Shown: positions 2,365-46,045 of the stretch, one piece after another
How positions within the stretch are numbered: the first letter of the stretch is position 1
Layout: every line of letters starts with the position of its first letter
Program-made: the position numbers and the translations under genes
From: Escherichia phage vB_vPM_PD112
Sequence record: NC_054928.1
DNA: 64,000 bases
Reading direction: 5' to 3' (one strand)
Notes under the pieces: model-generated
The model's input: the letters and a program-made list of their open reading frames with translations, nothing else
What the model was told of the DNA's origin: nothing
The model's database searches: none

Positions 2365-5061
2365 TCAGCCAAACAGGAAGTCTAACGAAGCTTTTTCTTC
2401 ATAGTCCATGCCAGCCGATTCACACATACCCGCAAGCGGTTTAACAAACGATTTTTGGAACAAAGTTGAGTGGTCAATCCAAGATAGCACATCAGAACGA
2501 ATTTCTTTTGGAAGTTCTGTACCCGATGGCCAAGCAATGCACTTGTCACCAAATGGATTTCCCTCACGTAATGGAAGAACCATTACCTTATTTCCATCCA
2601 AAATTGGAGCTACACCTAGACCACTAACAGCTCGACGATAAGTTAGCACCCCACGAATATGGAACGGGCATTTAAATCCTGGCCAACCTTTATCATCATA
2701 TTTCGCTATATCATTCGCAGTTTTTACTTCAGCAATAACTTTATAGTCAAGTTGACGATATTCTTTCTCGAAGTTCTTGTAATATTCTTGGACAGACTCT
2801 TCACCTTCCTGAAGAATACGACGAATACTTTCTTCGAGAGCTTCTTGCACTGCTTTTGGTGTTGAACTCTGCTGAGTTTCCATACCCATGATTTTTAGAT
2901 GTGGTTCAGCAAATCGCTTATCTTCCATATCATAAACGTTCAGAGCATAACGTTTTTTCGCTTTCCAAAATCCACCGACACCCTTTGAACCAAGCGGAGG
3001 ACAAGAAATAGCTTCACGGTCCATATGCATCAGATGCTCGCGATTATTCATATAATCACATAACTCACGATATGCAACATCAATCATAGGTTCCATCTTT
3101 TTCTTACCGAACTGATTCATGAATTCAACTAAATCATTTTGTTCTTTAAAGCGGTCAAGACCTACTTTTTCAATAACTTTATCTACACAAACATATACCG
3201 AATCAGTATCACCCGCGGCGATGAAATCTTCATCATTAGTTCCGCATACTTTATTCAGATATTCGTTAATTTTACGAGCAATCCACTGAATACCAACTTG
3301 ACCAAAAATTGTGATAGCAGTAGCATTTCGCAAATCATAGTAACGGAAATGAATGTTACCAAGAGCACCATAAAGACTGTTAATAAGAATTTTACGGTTC
3401 AGCTGATTTGTGTTAGCAAGTGTAGCTGCTTTTTCACATTCTTCAATCAGACTATTGAGAACGGATTCGGTGTAATTCGATAGTTCATTTAAGAAATCAT
3501 CATTGAACTTAACATATCGTTCAACTTCTGGTTTAGTTGAACAAGACCCTGCGCCTTTCATAATAATCTTTTTAATAGCTTCGGCATTCATTTCTTCAGC
3601 GAACATTTTCTTTTTCCAATCTTTACGCTGGAAAAATACTTTAGCGATTTCCTTTGGAATGATACCTTCTTGATGCTTATCATACATCCATCCATTCGGA
3701 GAACAAGAATATTCATCACTCGGTTTAGGAGCTGTTCCTGCAATATATTCATGAATTGGATGAACTTTAAACTGCCCACGAATAGTCTCAGGACTAATGT
3801 TAACCTGACGAATAATGCTAGGATACAGAGACGTCAAGTCAAAACTCATAATATATCGACGAGCAATTGGTTTAGGTTCAAACACAAATGCACCCGGAAA
3901 ACTTTGTTTAACGTGCGAACCCTGTTGAGGAATAACCTTATGTTCACCTTTCAGTGAGTTAAAAATAATAGCGTCCCAAGTTTTAATAGGACTCATTACG
4001 CCAGAAAAAGGCATTTTAGCGTAATAAGACATACTTAAAACTAGATCGATAAACCCACGAATTTTATCAATTGCTTGAACTGATTCTACGTCAATGATGT
4101 TATAACTAATGTATCGTTGATGATTAGTCTCACGAAGTTTATTAATAGGACCATCATACGGTAATTTACCTTTTTTGGTTTCATGCTGAGCAACTGATTC
4201 CAAAGAGAATGACGGCAAATTAGTAAATGCGAATTTCTTATACAAATCTAAATAATCAAGAATAGATACGCCATCAATAGAATAAATTTCTTTGCTACCG
4301 TACACATTTTGAATTAGTTTAGATTTTACCCGACCGATTGGAGAGAAGCGTTTCATACTACGTTCGCCAAGAACCATTTTAACACGATTCATGATATACG
4401 GAACGTCAAATCCCTCAATATTCCAACCAGTAAAAATAGCAGGTCGTTTCTGTTCCCAGAGATTAATATATTCCATGAGCATATCACGCTCATTATCAAA
4501 TGGCATATAAATTACTCGGTCAAGAATTTCTTGAGGAACTTCATCACCACCTTCACAGTCAAGCTTAGCAGCTAACTTTGCATCCCATTTTGATACTGAA
4601 CCGTACATTGAATTCAAAAGGTCGAAAACATAAAAACGGTCATCAATTGAATCGTAATGAGTGATAGCATCAATTTCATATTCTGCTTTCATTGGGTCAG
4701 GAAATTTATCACCAGTAACCTCAATGTCACAGTTAGCTACACGAACAAATTTTCGGTCATAAACAATTTCTGAACCATATGTATCACTGATATAAGCGAG
4801 TTTAAAATCGTTCATACCGAGAGCTTCGAGACCGATGTCTTCCATTCGTTTCATCCAATCTCGTGCATCTTTCATTGATGGAAATTTTTGAGGAGCGCAA
4901 TTTTTACCATAAATGTCTTTGTATTTTGATTCTTCCTTACAGTGTCTAAACATAGTCGGAATATATTCTACTTCACGAGTACGTTCCTTTCCGTTTTCAT
5001 CAATATAACGTTCAACAATGTTATTTCCGACTGTTTCAATAGAGATATAAAATTCTTTCAT
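2365..5061 (-). CDS. 43: DNA polymerase (family B)
   Basis: 898 aa, T4 gp43 length and N-terminus MKEFYISIETVGNNIVERYIDENGKERT. Confidence 0.95.
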   Translation of the reverse strand: MKEFYISIETVGNNIVERYIDENGKERTREVEYIPTMFRHCKEESKYKDIYGKNCAPQKFPSMKDARDWMKRMEDIGLEALGMNDFKLAYISDTYGSEIVYDRKFVRVANCDIEVTGDKFPDPMKAEYEIDAITHYDSIDDRFYVFDLLNSMYGSVSKWDAKLAAKLDCEGGDEVPQEILDRVIYMPFDNERDMLMEYINLWEQKRPAIFTGWNIEGFDVPYIMNRVKMVLGERSMKRFSPIGRVKSKLIQNVYGSKEIYSIDGVSILDYLDLYKKFAFTNLPSFSLESVAQHETKKGKLPYDGPINKLRETNHQRYISYNIIDVESVQAIDKIRGFIDLVLSMSYYAKMPFSGVMSPIKTWDAIIFNSLKGEHKVIPQQGSHVKQSFPGAFVFEPKPIARRYIMSFDLTSLYPSIIRQVNISPETIRGQFKVHPIHEYIAGTAPKPSDEYSCSPNGWMYDKHQEGIIPKEIAKVFFQRKDWKKKMFAEEMNAEAIKKIIMKGAGSCSTKPEVERYVKFNDDFLNELSNYTESVLNSLIEECEKAATLANTNQLNRKILINSLYGALGNIHFRYYDLRNATAITIFGQVGIQWIARKINEYLNKVCGTNDEDFIAAGDTDSVYVCVDKVIEKVGLDRFKEQNDLVEFMNQFGKKKMEPMIDVAYRELCDYMNNREHLMHMDREAISCPPLGSKGVGGFWKAKKRYALNVYDMEDKRFAEPHLKIMGMETQQSSTPKAVQEALEESIRRILQEGEESVQEYYKNFEKEYRQLDYKVIAEVKTANDIAKYDDKGWPGFKCPFHIRGVLTYRRAVSGLGVAPILDGNKVMVLPLREGNPFGDKCIAWPSGTELPKEIRSDVLSWIDHSTLFQKSFVKPLAGMCESAGMDYEEKASLDFLFG

Positions 5062-16397: not shown

Positions 16398-16718
16398 TTA
16401 ATCTTCTATGATATCTCTATCATATCCAAGTGAAATGAGAGTTTCTTTGAAGTGTTTAATGTTCTTTTGTCTAGAATCATTAATGAAAATGACTGGATAA
16501 CGAATGTTAAGAGATGTGAATCCAGCGCGTTTAGCAAGAGATACAATCAGTGGACGATCATACTCAATCTTACCATTATTTGTAAGAACTTTATAGAAAG
16601 TAAAAGGAGCATTGAGCTCCTTTAGAAGTTTTGTAACTGATTGACATCCAGGACAACGACCTACTTCATCTGGAATTCCATAGACTTCAATCTTATTCTT
16701 TGAGTTCGAGTTTTGTTC
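16398..16718 (-). CDS. nrdH: glutaredoxin-like NrdH; start uncertain (GTG at 16718 suggested, track ORF extends to 16850)
   Basis: CPGC redox motif and cis-Pro region YPVIFIN typical of glutaredoxin fold. Confidence 0.6.
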   Translation of the reverse strand, partial: EQNSNSKNKIEVYGIPDEVGRCPGCQSVTKLLKELNAPFTFYKVLTNNGKIEYDRPLIVSLAKRAGFTSLNIRYPVIFINDSRQKNIKHFKETLISLGYDRDIIED

Positions 16719-17004
16719 CACGAGAAATAATTCCTTGATAAGCCCAGTATGGCGGGTTAACAGAATCATCGCCAGAATTTTCTTCAGGAAAATAAACCTG
16801 GATAACAAATCCAGATGCATCAAAGGTAAAATAAACCGTAGGCAGTTCACCTAACAATTCAGCACGAGCATTAATTTCTTCGAGATCTCGTTCACGTCCA
16901 GCCCAAAAACTAGGATTTAGACTACATTCATAGAAATAATAGTCATTACCGAACATATCAAAACCCTTCCAACTCTCTACCACATATCGCTCAAAACTAA
17001 TCAT
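16693..17004 (-). CDS. hypothetical protein
   Basis: 103 aa ORF. Confidence 0.4.
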   Translation of the reverse strand: MISFERYVVESWKGFDMFGNDYYFYECSLNPSFWAGRERDLEEINARAELLGELPTVYFTFDASGFVIQVYFPEENSGDDSVNPPYWAYQGIISRGTKLELKE

Positions 17005-17006
17005 AA

Positions 17007-17222
17007 TTAGGCCTTTTTATCAAGAACAGCATTTAGTTTGTTAGTAATTTTATCCAGACGCTCATTGAACTCGCTAGAAGATAGTCCTTTTTCTGGAGAA
17101 ATTAAGCTAATCACGAAAAATATAGCAATAAAAGGAATAAGAAAAATAGCACCAACTGCCATAAACAAAAAGAACGTTACAGTTGTAAGAAAATCAGCTA
17201 AACCTTTACGAAATTTATACAT
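17007..17222 (-). CDS. small membrane protein (two TM segments)
   Basis: 71 aa, hydrophobic hairpin. Confidence 0.45.
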   Translation of the reverse strand: MYKFRKGLADFLTTVTFFLFMAVGAIFLIPFIAIFFVISLISPEKGLSSSEFNERLDKITNKLNAVLDKKA

Positions 17223-17337
17223 ATTTTACCCTTAATTGATTAACCAAGCATTGATAAGCACTAAACTATACTGTGAATAAAATTCTGGACCAAAATGAAA
17301 AATCATATCATTTATAGTATCCATAATGTAATTCAAT

Positions 17338-17808
17338 TTAATCATGTTTCCACACCCCATCGGTATTTGACCAAAGTCGCTGATTATCTGATCCTCGCCA
17401 CAGCTTTTTGGTCGGAAGATTTTTCTCATACTTCCCATCAATAATAACATCAACATATTTAAGCATTTCTAGTTGTTTAATATCTTCAAACTTATATCCT
17501 GTCCACAACCAAATGCTTTTATTGGGATAAAGATTTTTTACTGTTTGAACAATGCAATGAACATCATCTCGGTTATCAGGATAAAGAGGGTCTCCTCCAG
17601 TTATAGTTAATCCTTCTATATAATCATTATTCAAACATTCAATTAATTGTTCTAGTGTTTCACCAGTGAATGGAACGCCATTTCTAGCATTCCATGTTGA
17701 TTTATTATAACACCCTTCACATTTATGCAAACACCCCGTAACGAAAAGAACGACCCTGCATCCAGGGCCATTTACAAAGCAGCACGGGTATATTCTGTCA
17801 TAATTCAT
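17338..17808 (-). CDS. nrdG: anaerobic ribonucleotide reductase activating protein (radical SAM)
   Basis: Cys cluster CxxxCxxC (GCLHKCEGCYN); adjacent nrdD. Confidence 0.85.
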   Translation of the reverse strand: MNYDRIYPCCFVNGPGCRVVLFVTGCLHKCEGCYNKSTWNARNGVPFTGETLEQLIECLNNDYIEGLTITGGDPLYPDNRDDVHCIVQTVKNLYPNKSIWLWTGYKFEDIKQLEMLKYVDVIIDGKYEKNLPTKKLWRGSDNQRLWSNTDGVWKHD

Positions 17809-18047
17809 AATAATATCCAATTTTTCCAAGCTTCATCAGTAGAATTACAGCGTTTTAGTATAAGATGTCTAGAAACTTTTATGGCATTTGAGCACTTTTT
17901 AATTGAATCATATTTTAATAAAGCGGCACGAATCAATGTTCCTGACCCCATATAACCGTCATTTATGTTATCGGTGCTATGCGCACCGATATATTCCTTT
18001 GAATTAATTATATTTGTTATTTTATAAATTATATAATACCTATGCAT
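17805..18047 (-). pseudogene. truncated GIY-YIG homing endonuclease remnant (segB-like N-terminal half only)
   Basis: YIIYKITNIINSKEYIGAHSTDNINDGYMGSG parallels segB N-terminus; 80 aa, no DNA-binding domain; fills nrdG-nrdD gap. Confidence 0.5.
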
Positions 18048-19857
18048 GTTTTACTCGTTTTACCATTTCTTTCATTTTACCTAAATTCCATGGAACAACG
18101 CTAGGAGTTCCAAGATATCCGCATGTTCTTCTTATGGTGTTCATCTTTTTAGGATCAGTTTCTCCACAAATAGAACAAACAAATCCGTTCTCGGTTGGAG
18201 TCATTTCATGGGTACTTCCACACGTAAAACATTTATCTACTGGCATATTAACGCCAAAATAATCTAAATGTTGTGCAGCATAATCCCATACAGCCTCAAG
18301 GCCTTTTAGGTTATTTTTCATATCAGGAAGTTCAACATAAGAAATGTGACCGCCTGTCGCGATGAAATGATATGGGGCTTCGCGAGAAATCTTTTCAAAT
18401 GGAGTAATATTTTCTTCTACTGAAACGTGGAAACTGTTAGTGTACCAGCCTTTATCAGTAACATCTTTTACACTTCCATATTTTTCGGTATCAAGTTTAC
18501 AGAAGCGATAGCACAGGTTTTCAGCAGGAGTAGAATACAAGCTAAAAGCAAATCCGGTTCTTTCAGTCCACTGCTTAAGATGAGTATTCATTTTAGTTAA
18601 AATTTCTTGTCCAATATCACGACCGACAAGAATATTCAATTCGTGAATACCAATGTATCCTAGGGACACTGAACTTCTACCATTTTTAAATAACTCAATT
18701 ATATCGTCATCAGGTTTAAGACGAACCCCGAATGCACCTTCCTGGTAAAGAATAGGAGCAACAGTAGCTTTAACTCCTTTTAAGGAACTAATTCTACACA
18801 TCAATGCTTCAAAACATAAATCCATTCGTTCATTGAACAATTCGGCAAATTTCTGTTCATTGAACTGTGTTCCAATATAAGAATCTAATGCAATACGAGG
18901 AAGATTCAGTGTTACAACACCAAGATTATTACGTCCATCAAGAATTTCATTACCAGTCGAATCTTTCCATACGCCCAAGAAACTACGGCAACCCATTGGA
19001 GAAACAGGAATAGATGAACCGGTGATAGCTTTATTGTTCTTAGCCGAAATGATGTCAGGATACATTCTTTTGCTTGCGCACTCTAAAGCAAGCTGCTTAA
19101 TATCATAGTTCGGATCGTCTTTATAAAGATTAACACCTTCTTCAACGAACATAACAAGTTTAGGGAAAATAGGAGTTATCCCATCACGACCGAGACCTTT
19201 AATACGATTTTTCAGAATTGCTTTCTGAATCATTCGTTCAGTCCAGTCAGTTCCCGTACCAAATGTAATTGTTACAAAAGGAGTTTGTCCGTTTGAACTA
19301 AAGAGAGTATTTACTTCATATTCATAAGCTTGGAACGCATCGTATACGTCTTTTTCTGTTTTAGATTGGGCATAATTCAACGCATCAGTGATTTGCCATT
19401 TTTCCGCGTCCTCAATATGTTTCGCATAGGTGCGTTTAACATAAGGAGAAAGTACTTTATCTACATTCGCAAAAGTCGTTCCGCCATATTGATGAGAAGC
19501 AACCTGTGCAGTAATTTGTGCCATAATTGCAGTAGCAACGCCAATTGATTTAGGAGTTTCAATCTGTGCATTACCGAGCTTAAATCCGTTCTCAAGCATT
19601 CCTTTTAAATCTACTAAACAGCAATTAGTAAAAGGCAATGATATACTGTAATCTAAATCATGAAAATGAATTAACCCGGCATTATGAGCATTTACAATAT
19701 GGCTTGGAAGAATACTGCAAGCGATATGTTTAGAAACAATACCGGCCATTAAATCTCTTTTTGTTGGAAAGACACGAGAATCTTTGTTGGCGTTTTCGGT
19801 ATTTAATTCTTTATCTTTATTTGAAATAAAATTTAAAACATCTTTCTCTAAAGACAT
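18040..19857 (-). CDS. nrdD: anaerobic ribonucleoside-triphosphate reductase (uninterrupted, no intron)
   Basis: 605 aa contiguous ORF, T4 NrdD length; C-terminal Zn-ribbon CxxC...CxxC and glycyl-radical region. Confidence 0.9.
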   Translation of the reverse strand: MSLEKDVLNFISNKDKELNTENANKDSRVFPTKRDLMAGIVSKHIACSILPSHIVNAHNAGLIHFHDLDYSISLPFTNCCLVDLKGMLENGFKLGNAQIETPKSIGVATAIMAQITAQVASHQYGGTTFANVDKVLSPYVKRTYAKHIEDAEKWQITDALNYAQSKTEKDVYDAFQAYEYEVNTLFSSNGQTPFVTITFGTGTDWTERMIQKAILKNRIKGLGRDGITPIFPKLVMFVEEGVNLYKDDPNYDIKQLALECASKRMYPDIISAKNNKAITGSSIPVSPMGCRSFLGVWKDSTGNEILDGRNNLGVVTLNLPRIALDSYIGTQFNEQKFAELFNERMDLCFEALMCRISSLKGVKATVAPILYQEGAFGVRLKPDDDIIELFKNGRSSVSLGYIGIHELNILVGRDIGQEILTKMNTHLKQWTERTGFAFSLYSTPAENLCYRFCKLDTEKYGSVKDVTDKGWYTNSFHVSVEENITPFEKISREAPYHFIATGGHISYVELPDMKNNLKGLEAVWDYAAQHLDYFGVNMPVDKCFTCGSTHEMTPTENGFVCSICGETDPKKMNTIRRTCGYLGTPSVVPWNLGKMKEMVKRVKHA

Positions 19858-20669
19858 AATTCTAATTTATCCTTTTGAAATTCTTCGTCTAAATATGGGT
19901 TCCAACCCATTTTAAACCTTTTGATGAAATTATCAATTCTAAATTTCGGTAAGTTTAAATCCGCAAAAATAGATGATTTACTTTTAAAATCTGGACCTAA
20001 ATAATCATATAAAATTTCTGCGTATTTTAACCATAATATATAAGTACCAGATTTAATTGCTCTCGGAGTTTTCCAAGGTTTTACACCATACATCGGATTT
20101 CCACTTCCTTTATGCCTGATAGAAGATGAAATTCCAATTTTAATTTTAGCTTCCTCTGTATGCGAAAATCCATGATGTGGATTTTCTTTCCAGTATTTTT
20201 TAGAAGCTTCTGATATTTTCTTTCTGGCTAAATTAGTATGATGCTTTCCATAAAATCCATGATTTTTACCTTTATTACGATTTCTTTTAATCATGGTTAT
20301 TGATTGCTTTTTTCTAGTTTCTTTAGAAGGAGAAACACCGTATGTTGTAAATTGACCATTAGCATATGCTAAATTAAAATACTCTTTATTCCATATATCT
20401 TTTTCTATATTCTTTTGAAATTCAGCTTCAATGCTAGTTATTTGCTCATCTCCGACTAATTGAAAATATAATATTTCAACTTTCGGCGTTTCTTTCAACA
20501 GGGCTTTTTGAAATTCGGAAGATGACGAAGACGAATAATAAAATTTACCATTTTTATCAATAATATTCGTTCCGTCAAAAGTGCAATTGGTTTTACTTCC
20601 AATATAATAATACGGCGGGGTTTTAGCATTAATTCTACTAATAAATGATAGTTTATATACTACATTCAT
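19848..20669 (-). CDS. free-standing GIY-YIG homing endonuclease with NUMOD3-like DNA-binding repeats
   Basis: N-terminal VVYKL...YYYIGSKTN; repeats GKHHTNLARKKISEASK and GFSHTEEAKIKIGIS; wedged between 49 and nrdD with coupled overlaps. Confidence 0.65.
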   Translation of the reverse strand: MNVVYKLSFISRINAKTPPYYYIGSKTNCTFDGTNIIDKNGKFYYSSSSSSEFQKALLKETPKVEILYFQLVGDEQITSIEAEFQKNIEKDIWNKEYFNLAYANGQFTTYGVSPSKETRKKQSITMIKRNRNKGKNHGFYGKHHTNLARKKISEASKKYWKENPHHGFSHTEEAKIKIGISSSIRHKGSGNPMYGVKPWKTPRAIKSGTYILWLKYAEILYDYLGPDFKSKSSIFADLNLPKFRIDNFIKRFKMGWNPYLDEEFQKDKLELCL

Positions 20670-21139
20670 TTTAAACTCTTTCTAAGCTGCTTCTTAAATG
20701 AAGCTATTAATTGTGTTTTGGTGTCAGATTCATTATATTCAAATCCTCTTTGAAGCATCTCAGCCATCATTTCCTCTTTTCCTAAACGAGAAAATTCCTT
20801 TGATTTATCTCCAACGAAGTTAGGGTGAATATTATTTTGGGTGTAATCGGATTTTAAATAAGTAAGTAAATTTTCTAACCATTCAAGATAATCAACGCCT
20901 TGTCCCTTTAAGCCAGAACGATTAAATTTGTGTTTCATTTGACCTTCTGCAGCATTACACAGATTACAAAGCAATCCACGTACCTTTCCAGCTTTCGGTC
21001 CATTTAATTCATGGTCATGGTCAAGGTGATTAGCTTGAACATCAGGATTTAGTTCTCGTTGGCAAATTAAGCATTTACCGTTTTGTGCATTATAAAATTT
21101 TTGTTTTTCTTCTTTGTATAATTTGCCAGTCAATAACAT
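20666..21139 (-). CDS. 49: endonuclease VII (Holliday junction resolvase)
   Basis: 157 aa; matches T4 gp49 (CLICQRELNP...HDHELNG). Confidence 0.9.
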   Translation of the reverse strand: MLLTGKLYKEEKQKFYNAQNGKCLICQRELNPDVQANHLDHDHELNGPKAGKVRGLLCNLCNAAEGQMKHKFNRSGLKGQGVDYLEWLENLLTYLKSDYTQNNIHPNFVGDKSKEFSRLGKEEMMAEMLQRGFEYNESDTKTQLIASFKKQLRKSLK

Positions 21140-45379: not shown

Positions 45380-46045
45380 TTAAAATTTCATTTTTCGACC
45401 TTTAAACCATCCTTCTGGAATTGGGTCAGTTTTCTTAATACGTTTAGAAACTTTTTCATCTAATGAATGAATCCACATCATGCCAAATTGGGAATTCTTT
45501 TCACCTTGTTGGTGTTTATTTCTGGCGTGAGATTCTTTCATTTTATTAATAGTTTCAGGAGTATGATGCTTATTTAAAAATCTGCTATTATTTAAAAATT
45601 TTTCCCTGTATTCAGGAGTTGACCACAAGCGTTTAAATACATTTGAACCATTTTTACGATATTTTTCTTGAAGTAAAATATCATTTTTAAAACGTGACTT
45701 AAACGATTTAGCTCCTTTTAAACTAGCGTCTTTCTTCTGATTTAGCATCTCAGGAATATTTATATGATCCCATCCACCTTCACCGCCAAGTTTTAAATTA
45801 TACACATCAGGTCTATTTAAAAACTCTTCTGTGACAATATTTTTCTCGGCTTCAAGCATAGATTCTTTATCGTCAAAATATTCTAATATTTCTTTAGAAA
45901 AATTTTCTATACCATACCTGTCTTGGGCTCTTTTTAATAATTTACCAGAACCCATATATCCATCATCTAAATTTTCGGTAGAATGCACACCAATATAAAT
46001 TTTATTATTAATTTTATTTGTTATTTTATAAGCGTAATGGAACAT
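45380..46045 (-). CDS. segB: GIY-YIG homing endonuclease SegB
   Basis: 221 aa; YKITNKINNKIYIGVHST...GYMGSG; inside the tRNA cluster as in T4. Confidence 0.85.
   Translation of the reverse strand: MFHYAYKITNKINNKIYIGVHSTENLDDGYMGSGKLLKRAQDRYGIENFSKEILEYFDDKESMLEAEKNIVTEEFLNRPDVYNLKLGGEGGWDHINIPEMLNQKKDASLKGAKSFKSRFKNDILLQEKYRKNGSNVFKRLWSTPEYREKFLNNSRFLNKHHTPETINKMKESHARNKHQQGEKNSQFGMMWIHSLDEKVSKRIKKTDPIPEGWFKGRKMKF

Follow-up and report, generated by a model that had tools for sequence, protein, structure and literature searches.

The short open reading frame between nrdD and nrdG in the window (the whole 64,000-nucleotide stretch analysed, a segment of a T4-type phage of the genus Tequatrovirus) is, we conclude with high confidence, an allele of the homing-endonuclease gene segH that was recently inactivated by a single in-frame deletion of 588 bp. 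It is an unremarkable case of decay in a known gene and not a new small protein. The frame, designated ORF80 or Delta-segH, extends from 17805 to 18047 on the minus strand; in the list of open reading frames it comprises an ATG start and 80 codons followed by a stop, and its translation begins MHRYYIIYKITNIINSKEYIGAHSTDNINDGYMGSG.

Genomic setting and identity of ORF80

ORF80 belongs to a cluster of minus-strand genes that consists of gene 49 (endonuclease VII, 20666..21139), a seg-like gene of 273 amino acids (19848..20669), nrdD (anaerobic ribonucleotide reductase, 18040..19857), ORF80 itself and nrdG (the activating enzyme, 17338..17808; Pfam Fer4_12, E = 2e-48). The last 8 nt of nrdD overlap the start of ORF80 (ATGCATAG), and the TGA of ORF80 shares bases with the ATG of nrdG in the tetranucleotide ATGA. 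The layout with an intact segH is the same, as in the segH genes of T6 and RB3 (GenBank AY262137, AY262138), which lie at this very locus with the same start and stop overlaps; the position between nrdD and nrdG, the 8-nt overlap at the start and the overlap of the stop with the nrdG ATG are all found in ORF80.

Two further features of this neighbourhood were noted. The nrdD gene of the window is one unbroken 605-codon ORF with no intron, whereas nrdD of T4 and CE1 is interrupted by a group I intron that carries I-TevII or a comparable endonuclease. The 273-aa seg-like gene, located between gene 49 and nrdD and overlapping both, contains NUMOD3 motifs (Pfam E = 1e-8) behind a degenerate-looking GIY-YIG N-terminus; it is absent in T4, T6 and CE1, and 47 phage records have it, some of them alongside an intact segH. 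Together with the segH remnant, this gene leaves nrdD flanked by two endonuclease-type genes in the source phage.

When the interval was compared with 50,697 phage records by megablast, the matches fell into two pieces with about 590 extra bases between them. In T6, RB3, PP01, CE1 and other phages, the slot is occupied by an 831-bp gene labelled segH or homing endonuclease, which overlaps nrdD and nrdG exactly as ORF80 does, and the alignment of the window with T6 displays one 588-column gap and near identity otherwise. A breakpoint scan showed that all 243 bases of ORF80 are identical to CE1 segH once nt 133-720 of the latter are removed, and the kept parts agree with T6 segH at 242 of 243 bases—a near-identity to described segH genes at the nucleotide level. 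ORF80 consists of segH codons 1-46 joined in frame to codons 243-276, with 588 bp (196 codons) gone and the full-length frame of 276 codons no longer present. Moreover, BLASTP against P0001, the representative of the main SegH cluster, matched SegH residues 1-46 at 46/46 positions and aligned the ORF80 tail with SegH residues 240-276 at 36/37, the sole mismatch being located at the junction.

The 5' kept segment (segH nt 1-132; 17916..18047, minus strand) encodes the GIY and YIG strands (β1 and β2) and most of helix α1, and the 3' kept segment (segH nt 728-831; 17805..17908, minus strand) encodes the last 34 codons and the stop. Between them lies the deletion junction (17909..17915, minus strand), a 7-nt microhomology, AAATATG, embedded in the imperfect direct repeat TATTAAA(A)TATG. 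The exact breakpoint may lie anywhere within ORF nt 133-139, as judged by the scan against T6 and CE1 segH. The repeat is found at both breakpoints of intact segH and can be seen in six alleles that are intact or nearly so. A tblastn search of the whole window with full-length SegH recovered the two kept pieces and the paralogue segB only; the missing block is absent, and no frameshifted continuation of the GIY-YIG domain was detected in the window.

A preliminary description of this DNA, drawn from the sequence without database searches, had interpreted the frame as a GIY-YIG fragment that reproduces the N-terminus of SegB and diverges thereafter. The resemblance to SegB is genuine: residues 4-46 match the SegB of the window at 25/43 positions (58%, E = 4e-16), and a nucleotide alignment with segB covers ORF nt 21-113 (93 nt) at 75% identity (E = 6e-15). 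It does stop at about residue 46, but the sequence beyond this point has not diverged—the tail is the authentic C-terminus of SegH, joined by the deletion. Nor does the parentage lie with segB (45380..46045, minus strand), a separate gene that is located elsewhere, in the tRNA region, and encodes a paralogous GIY-YIG N-terminus; the closest relative is SegH, a protein already described in T6 and RB3. That a decayed GIY-YIG remnant occupies the slot between nrdD and nrdG was correctly recognized, although the decay amounts to a single clean 588-bp deletion without gradual divergence, and the term fossil overstates the age of a sequence whose kept DNA is identical, base for base, to a living allele.

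The SegH protein and the parts removed by the deletion

Pfam assigns three domains to SegH of T6, i.e., SegE_GIY-YIG (residues 32-83), NUMOD3 (200-228) and I-TevI_DNA-bd (PF20987; 226-273). An AlphaFold model of SegH, built on a 50-sequence alignment of homologues, was obtained with good confidence (mean pLDDT of 85.7, with values of 93-98 across residues 1-90) and features an N-terminal β-β-α-β-α-α domain, a helical linker and a C-terminal module arranged as strand-strand-helix-helix-strand. The four best PDB matches to this model in Foldseek were the catalytic domain (1MK0, 1LN0) and the DNA-binding domain (1I3J) of I-TevI, with probabilities of 0.99-1.00; as modelled, full-length SegH has the architecture of I-TevI. 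A single-sequence phmmer search of SegH against the PDB returned noise only. A 32-sequence profile reached I-TevI 1LN0 weakly (E = 0.075), less clearly than the fold search did, in an alignment that spans the whole catalytic domain, places SegH Y84-N85 on the I-TevI 'YNI' motif and pairs E69 and N85 with I-TevI E75 and N90.

Projected onto the SegH model, the 5' part of ORF80 retains strands E4-12 and E18-25 and helix H37-46, and the 3' part retains helices H245-252 and H256-263 and strand E273-275. Among the positions invariant across the 50 homologues, Y8, T11, Y19, G21, H23, T25, D30, Y32, G34, S35 and G36 are kept, and nine of the 20 (G47, F51, L56, E69, Y84, N85, G89, G90 and G92) are deleted. 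ORF80 has the GIY motif and the YIG motif in its β1 and β2 strands (YKITN and EYIG; Y8 and Y19-I-G21), and the catalytic Glu and the conserved Asn (E69 and N85) are missing, both being located inside the deleted block. From a complete GIY-YIG fold of ~90-100 residues, β1, β2 and α1 (residues 1-46) alone are kept; β3 and α2-α3 were taken by the deletion.

The separate DNA-binding region is likewise incomplete. The deleted block takes in NUMOD3 (200-228) and, within the I-TevI_DNA-bd match, residues 226-242; nothing is left of the NUMOD3 linker or of the two strands that open the C-terminal I-TevI-like domain. Set against segH of T6 and RB3, ORF80 thus lacks codons 47-242, i.e., half of the catalytic domain, the NUMOD3 linker and the start of the HTH domain. 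The earlier remark that the frame carries no DNA-binding domain is mostly borne out, and Pfam detects none in ORF80, but the last 34 residues are in fact the tail of the I-TevI-like HTH domain, with its two helices and final strand. Pfam barely detects the catalytic family in ORF80 (SegE_GIY-YIG, E = 0.33), and a single-sequence AlphaFold model of the 80-residue product was set aside as poor and uninformative (all-helical, with a pLDDT of 64 and a pTM of 0.30).

Nuclease activity is not expected of ORF80 because the invariant Glu and Asn and several fold elements are deleted. Judging from these missing residues and elements, the product almost certainly has no nuclease activity, and we would expect it neither to adopt the GIY-YIG fold nor to cut DNA or home. 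It shares with intact GIY-YIG homing endonucleases of the I-TevI/Seg type the motifs of the first strands, without the catalytic Glu/Asn or a complete fold. Endonuclease activity of SegH was reportedly described by Sandegren, Nord and Sjoberg in 2005, in Nucleic Acids Res 33:6203. The review PMC2988022 likewise states that such activity has been reported. On sequence grounds, this activity would not be expected of ORF80.

At the nucleic acid level, the 5' kept segment contains a 9-bp perfect hairpin (17969..17991, minus strand) across the codons for YIGAHSTD. This element, UAUCGGUGC-GCAUA-GCACCGAUA, has a predicted energy of -15.8 kcal/mol (z = -4.6 relative to shuffled sequences), and its stem is unchanged in the six segH alleles compared—five intact ones, including that of Salmonella phage KM16, and the frameshift allele of phage sutha, in which a 4-nt duplication lies directly 3' of the hairpin. 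Rfam returned no RNA family across positions 16500-19500. We also considered an embedded promoter as a reason for the retention of ORF80. This option was rejected, as neither a T4 late promoter (TATAAATA) nor a MotA-box promoter was found in ORF80, and sigma-70-like sites were fewer than in shuffled sequences.

The nrdD-nrdG slot across phages

To survey the slot, we searched the phage records with a synthetic query made of the nrdD end and nrdG, and sampled the matches down the ranking. The slot has at least four states: empty, segH, Delta-segH and mobC. It is empty in most Tequatroviruses (T2, REP4 and RB18; flank identity to the window of 90-93.6%), filled by segH in CE1, RB3 and others (94.7-98%) and filled by mobC in PST, RB55 and SHFML-11 (86-95%). 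The flanks of the window are nearer to those of segH-bearing than to those of empty-site phages. In the empty sites of T2 and REP4, the nrdD TGA overlaps the nrdG ATG directly, with no ORF between the two genes.

Block-wise identities revealed that the gene ends next to the slot differ from the remainder of the flanks. Over the last ~90 nt of nrdD (18040-18130), the window and T6 are 50-65% identical to T2 and T4, as opposed to 90-98% upstream, and over the first 40 nt of nrdG (17769-17808) the identity between the same pairs is 75-78%. The nrdD C-terminus reads ...TPSVVPWNLGKMKEMVKRVKHA in the window and in segH-bearing phages, and ...NPNERGFNLGKNKEIMHRVKHQ in T2 and T4. As judged from these comparisons, segH travels with recoded gene ends, which are retained in the window and are presumably the SegH-resistant versions of the target. 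Additionally, the nine bases that open segH (ATGCATAGG, encoding MHR) are identical to in-frame MHR codons near the nrdD end of empty-site phages, which hints at how the segH cassette may originally have been built.

In T4, the occupant of the slot had been given as mobE, a gene that sits between nrdA and nrdB; it is actually mobC, an HNH gene. Table 1 of PMC2988022 also gives mobC as the T4 gene at this position. The proposal that the slot of the window records a different invasion from that of the T4 HNH gene was supported: comparison of ORF80 with the T4 nrdG-mobC-nrdD interval gave no significant match by either blastn or blastp, and ORF80 is not a member of the MobC/H-N-H group. The mobC gene of T4 (found in RB55, PST and others as well) is, like segH, a free-standing, homing-endonuclease-like gene that overlaps its neighbours in the slot. 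It belongs, however, to a family unrelated to ORF80 and is inserted a few codons inside nrdG, whereas segH is inserted at the nrdD end. In T4 (2880-3580), mobC and nrdG share their first seven codons (MNYDRIY), which implies that the mobC insertion duplicated the 5' end of nrdG and that its entry point differs from that of segH.

We found segH in 71 other phage records, in all of them as the full gene; those listed span 831 bp, except for that of sutha (PV245934, 254-1088), which spans 835 bp. In sutha, the 4 nt ATAA are duplicated in tandem behind nt 81; this shifts the frame of segH, and the split gene appears in the record as two 'homing endonuclease' CDSs. This second, independent inactivation shows that segH does decay in this population. 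The Salmonella phage KM16, of the genus Moonvirus, carries an intact segH with 91.5% identity to the T6 gene, suggesting that segH has moved between genera. Several records proved to be misannotated: those of RB3 and RB5-RB10 label segH as 'segD', the T2 record AP018813 labels nrdG as 'tail sheath monomer', and the LH2 record sets the start of segH at an internal ATG despite an open full frame.

Delta-segH, in turn, is a rare allele. With a 91-nt query centred on the junction and at least 80% coverage, none of the 50,697 phage records contained the junction, and no IMG/VR contig and no GTDB genome contig did so. One JGI metagenome hit was rejected as a chance 26-mer match in unrelated DNA. The exact 80-aa protein forms a singleton cluster among ~15 billion proteins—with no phage record holding the junction, ORF80 is not a complete, conserved small protein. 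The same junction was identified on an ENA metagenome contig (ERZ9424069 NODE_246577; 634 bp at 3.9x coverage), on which the ORF and the junction are 100% identical to the window at the DNA level. The nrdG part of this contig differs from the window at 8 sites, mostly synonymous, with a single amino acid change among them. Within its first 70 nt, the contig shows 11 G>T or C>A changes that also put an in-frame stop into nrdD and are almost certainly sequencing errors; hence, the nrdG side alone serves as evidence for a different background. The combination of an identical junction with a differing nrdG indicates that the allele is not an assembly quirk of the window genome. The Delta-segH allele is real and present in at least a second background, but rare.

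Origin and present state of the Delta-segH locus

Both replication slippage and microhomology-mediated illegitimate recombination are well known in T4. In the simplest history, the one that we propose, segH would have invaded an ancestor of the source phage as the full gene of 276 codons, which would account for the co-converted flanks, and one deletion between the two copies of AAATATG would then have removed 588 bp (196 codons) by a process that fits either of these two routes. The deletion would have fallen in frame by chance. Of the 7-mer direct repeats in segH, roughly every second pair (40-41 of 82-88) is spaced in frame, so that the in-frame outcome needs no selection, and we rejected it as evidence for selection on this basis. 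Since 243 of 243 bases match the living CE1 allele, no change would have occurred since the deletion. Both gene overlaps are intact, which implies that the remnant probably continues to yield an 80-aa peptide and to pass ribosomes on to nrdG.

The interruption of segH by a deletion was weighed against three other explanations. According to one of these, ORF80 has been kept for a function—either as a small HTH binder that shields or regulates the nrdD-nrdG junction or as a frame that keeps nrdG coupled. The DNA-binding domain of I-TevI acts as an autorepressor, and this reading could draw on the in-frame nature of the deletion, on the preservation of both gene overlaps, on the retention of two HTH helices and the terminal strand, and on the occurrence of the same allele in a second genomic background. 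Nevertheless, we regard it as very unlikely: the protein is a singleton absent from the 50,697 phage records; no substitutions have accumulated after the deletion, which leaves no time in which selection could have acted or become detectable; chance alone gives an in-frame outcome about half the time; Pfam sees no DNA-binding domain in a remnant that has lost the first two strands of the C-terminal domain along with all NUMOD3 and linker contacts; and empty-site phages couple nrdG straight to nrdD without any intervening ORF. Slighter still is the chance that the fusion peptide might serve as a small DNA-binding or dominant-negative factor, e.g., by occupying the SegH recognition region or by tuning nrdG expression. 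If so, a dead homing endonuclease would have been domesticated within a very short evolutionary time.

The short ORF could also be an artefact of assembly or sequencing, or a laboratory deletion mutant of a natural phage with full-length segH, as might be suspected from the lack of the junction in any other complete phage genome of the collection and from the short repeat that flanks the deletion in AT-rich DNA. A repeat of 7-12 nt is, however, far too short to collapse a modern assembly, and the metagenome contig, an independent source, shows this junction unaltered next to a different nrdG; this explanation is extremely improbable. The probability is next to nil that the 80-aa form is ancestral and that the full segH arose by a 588-bp insertion. 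Nothing beyond the formal symmetry of an indel speaks for such an event, whereas the 588 bp encode invariant parts of the GIY-YIG fold, together with NUMOD3 and HTH modules that SegB, I-TevI and hundreds of homologues also possess, and the full form occurs in 71 records, which extend to another genus (KM16, a Moonvirus). Deletion within a pre-existing segH is accordingly the reading that we adopt.

Shortened homing endonucleases have precedents in phages. The T4 form of I-TevIII, the endonuclease of the nrdB intron, is truncated, and its full-length counterpart is found in RB3. In Table 1 of PMC2988022, activity of the enzyme is given for RB3 alone, and I-TevIII is termed defunct in the title of PMC2790892. 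As with ORF80, the T4 gene is a shortened, inactive homing endonuclease ORF with an intact gene in relatives; unlike ORF80, it encodes an HNH enzyme within an intron. A mechanistic parallel is offered by gp174 of phage ICP1, a T5orf172 homing endonuclease that underwent an in-frame 228-bp deletion between degenerate repeats (PMC10448857). In both cases, short internal repeats recombined to yield an in-frame internal deletion. The deletion in gp174 is located inside repeated DNA-binding modules, with a proposed change of specificity, whereas that of ORF80 removes catalytic residues.

The Delta-segH locus by itself carries little weight beyond annotation, where the label of ORF80 should read truncated segH pseudogene or remnant instead of hypothetical protein or homing endonuclease. 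Within the homing-endonuclease life cycle, the locus is at the 'degenerate' stage, and it provides a clean, datable snapshot of how such genes degenerate in T-even phages—with one deletion, no later mutations and flanks of the presumably resistant type still in place. The four-state slot between nrdD and nrdG is, on a broader level, a handy natural system for the gain, decay and replacement of free-standing endonucleases.
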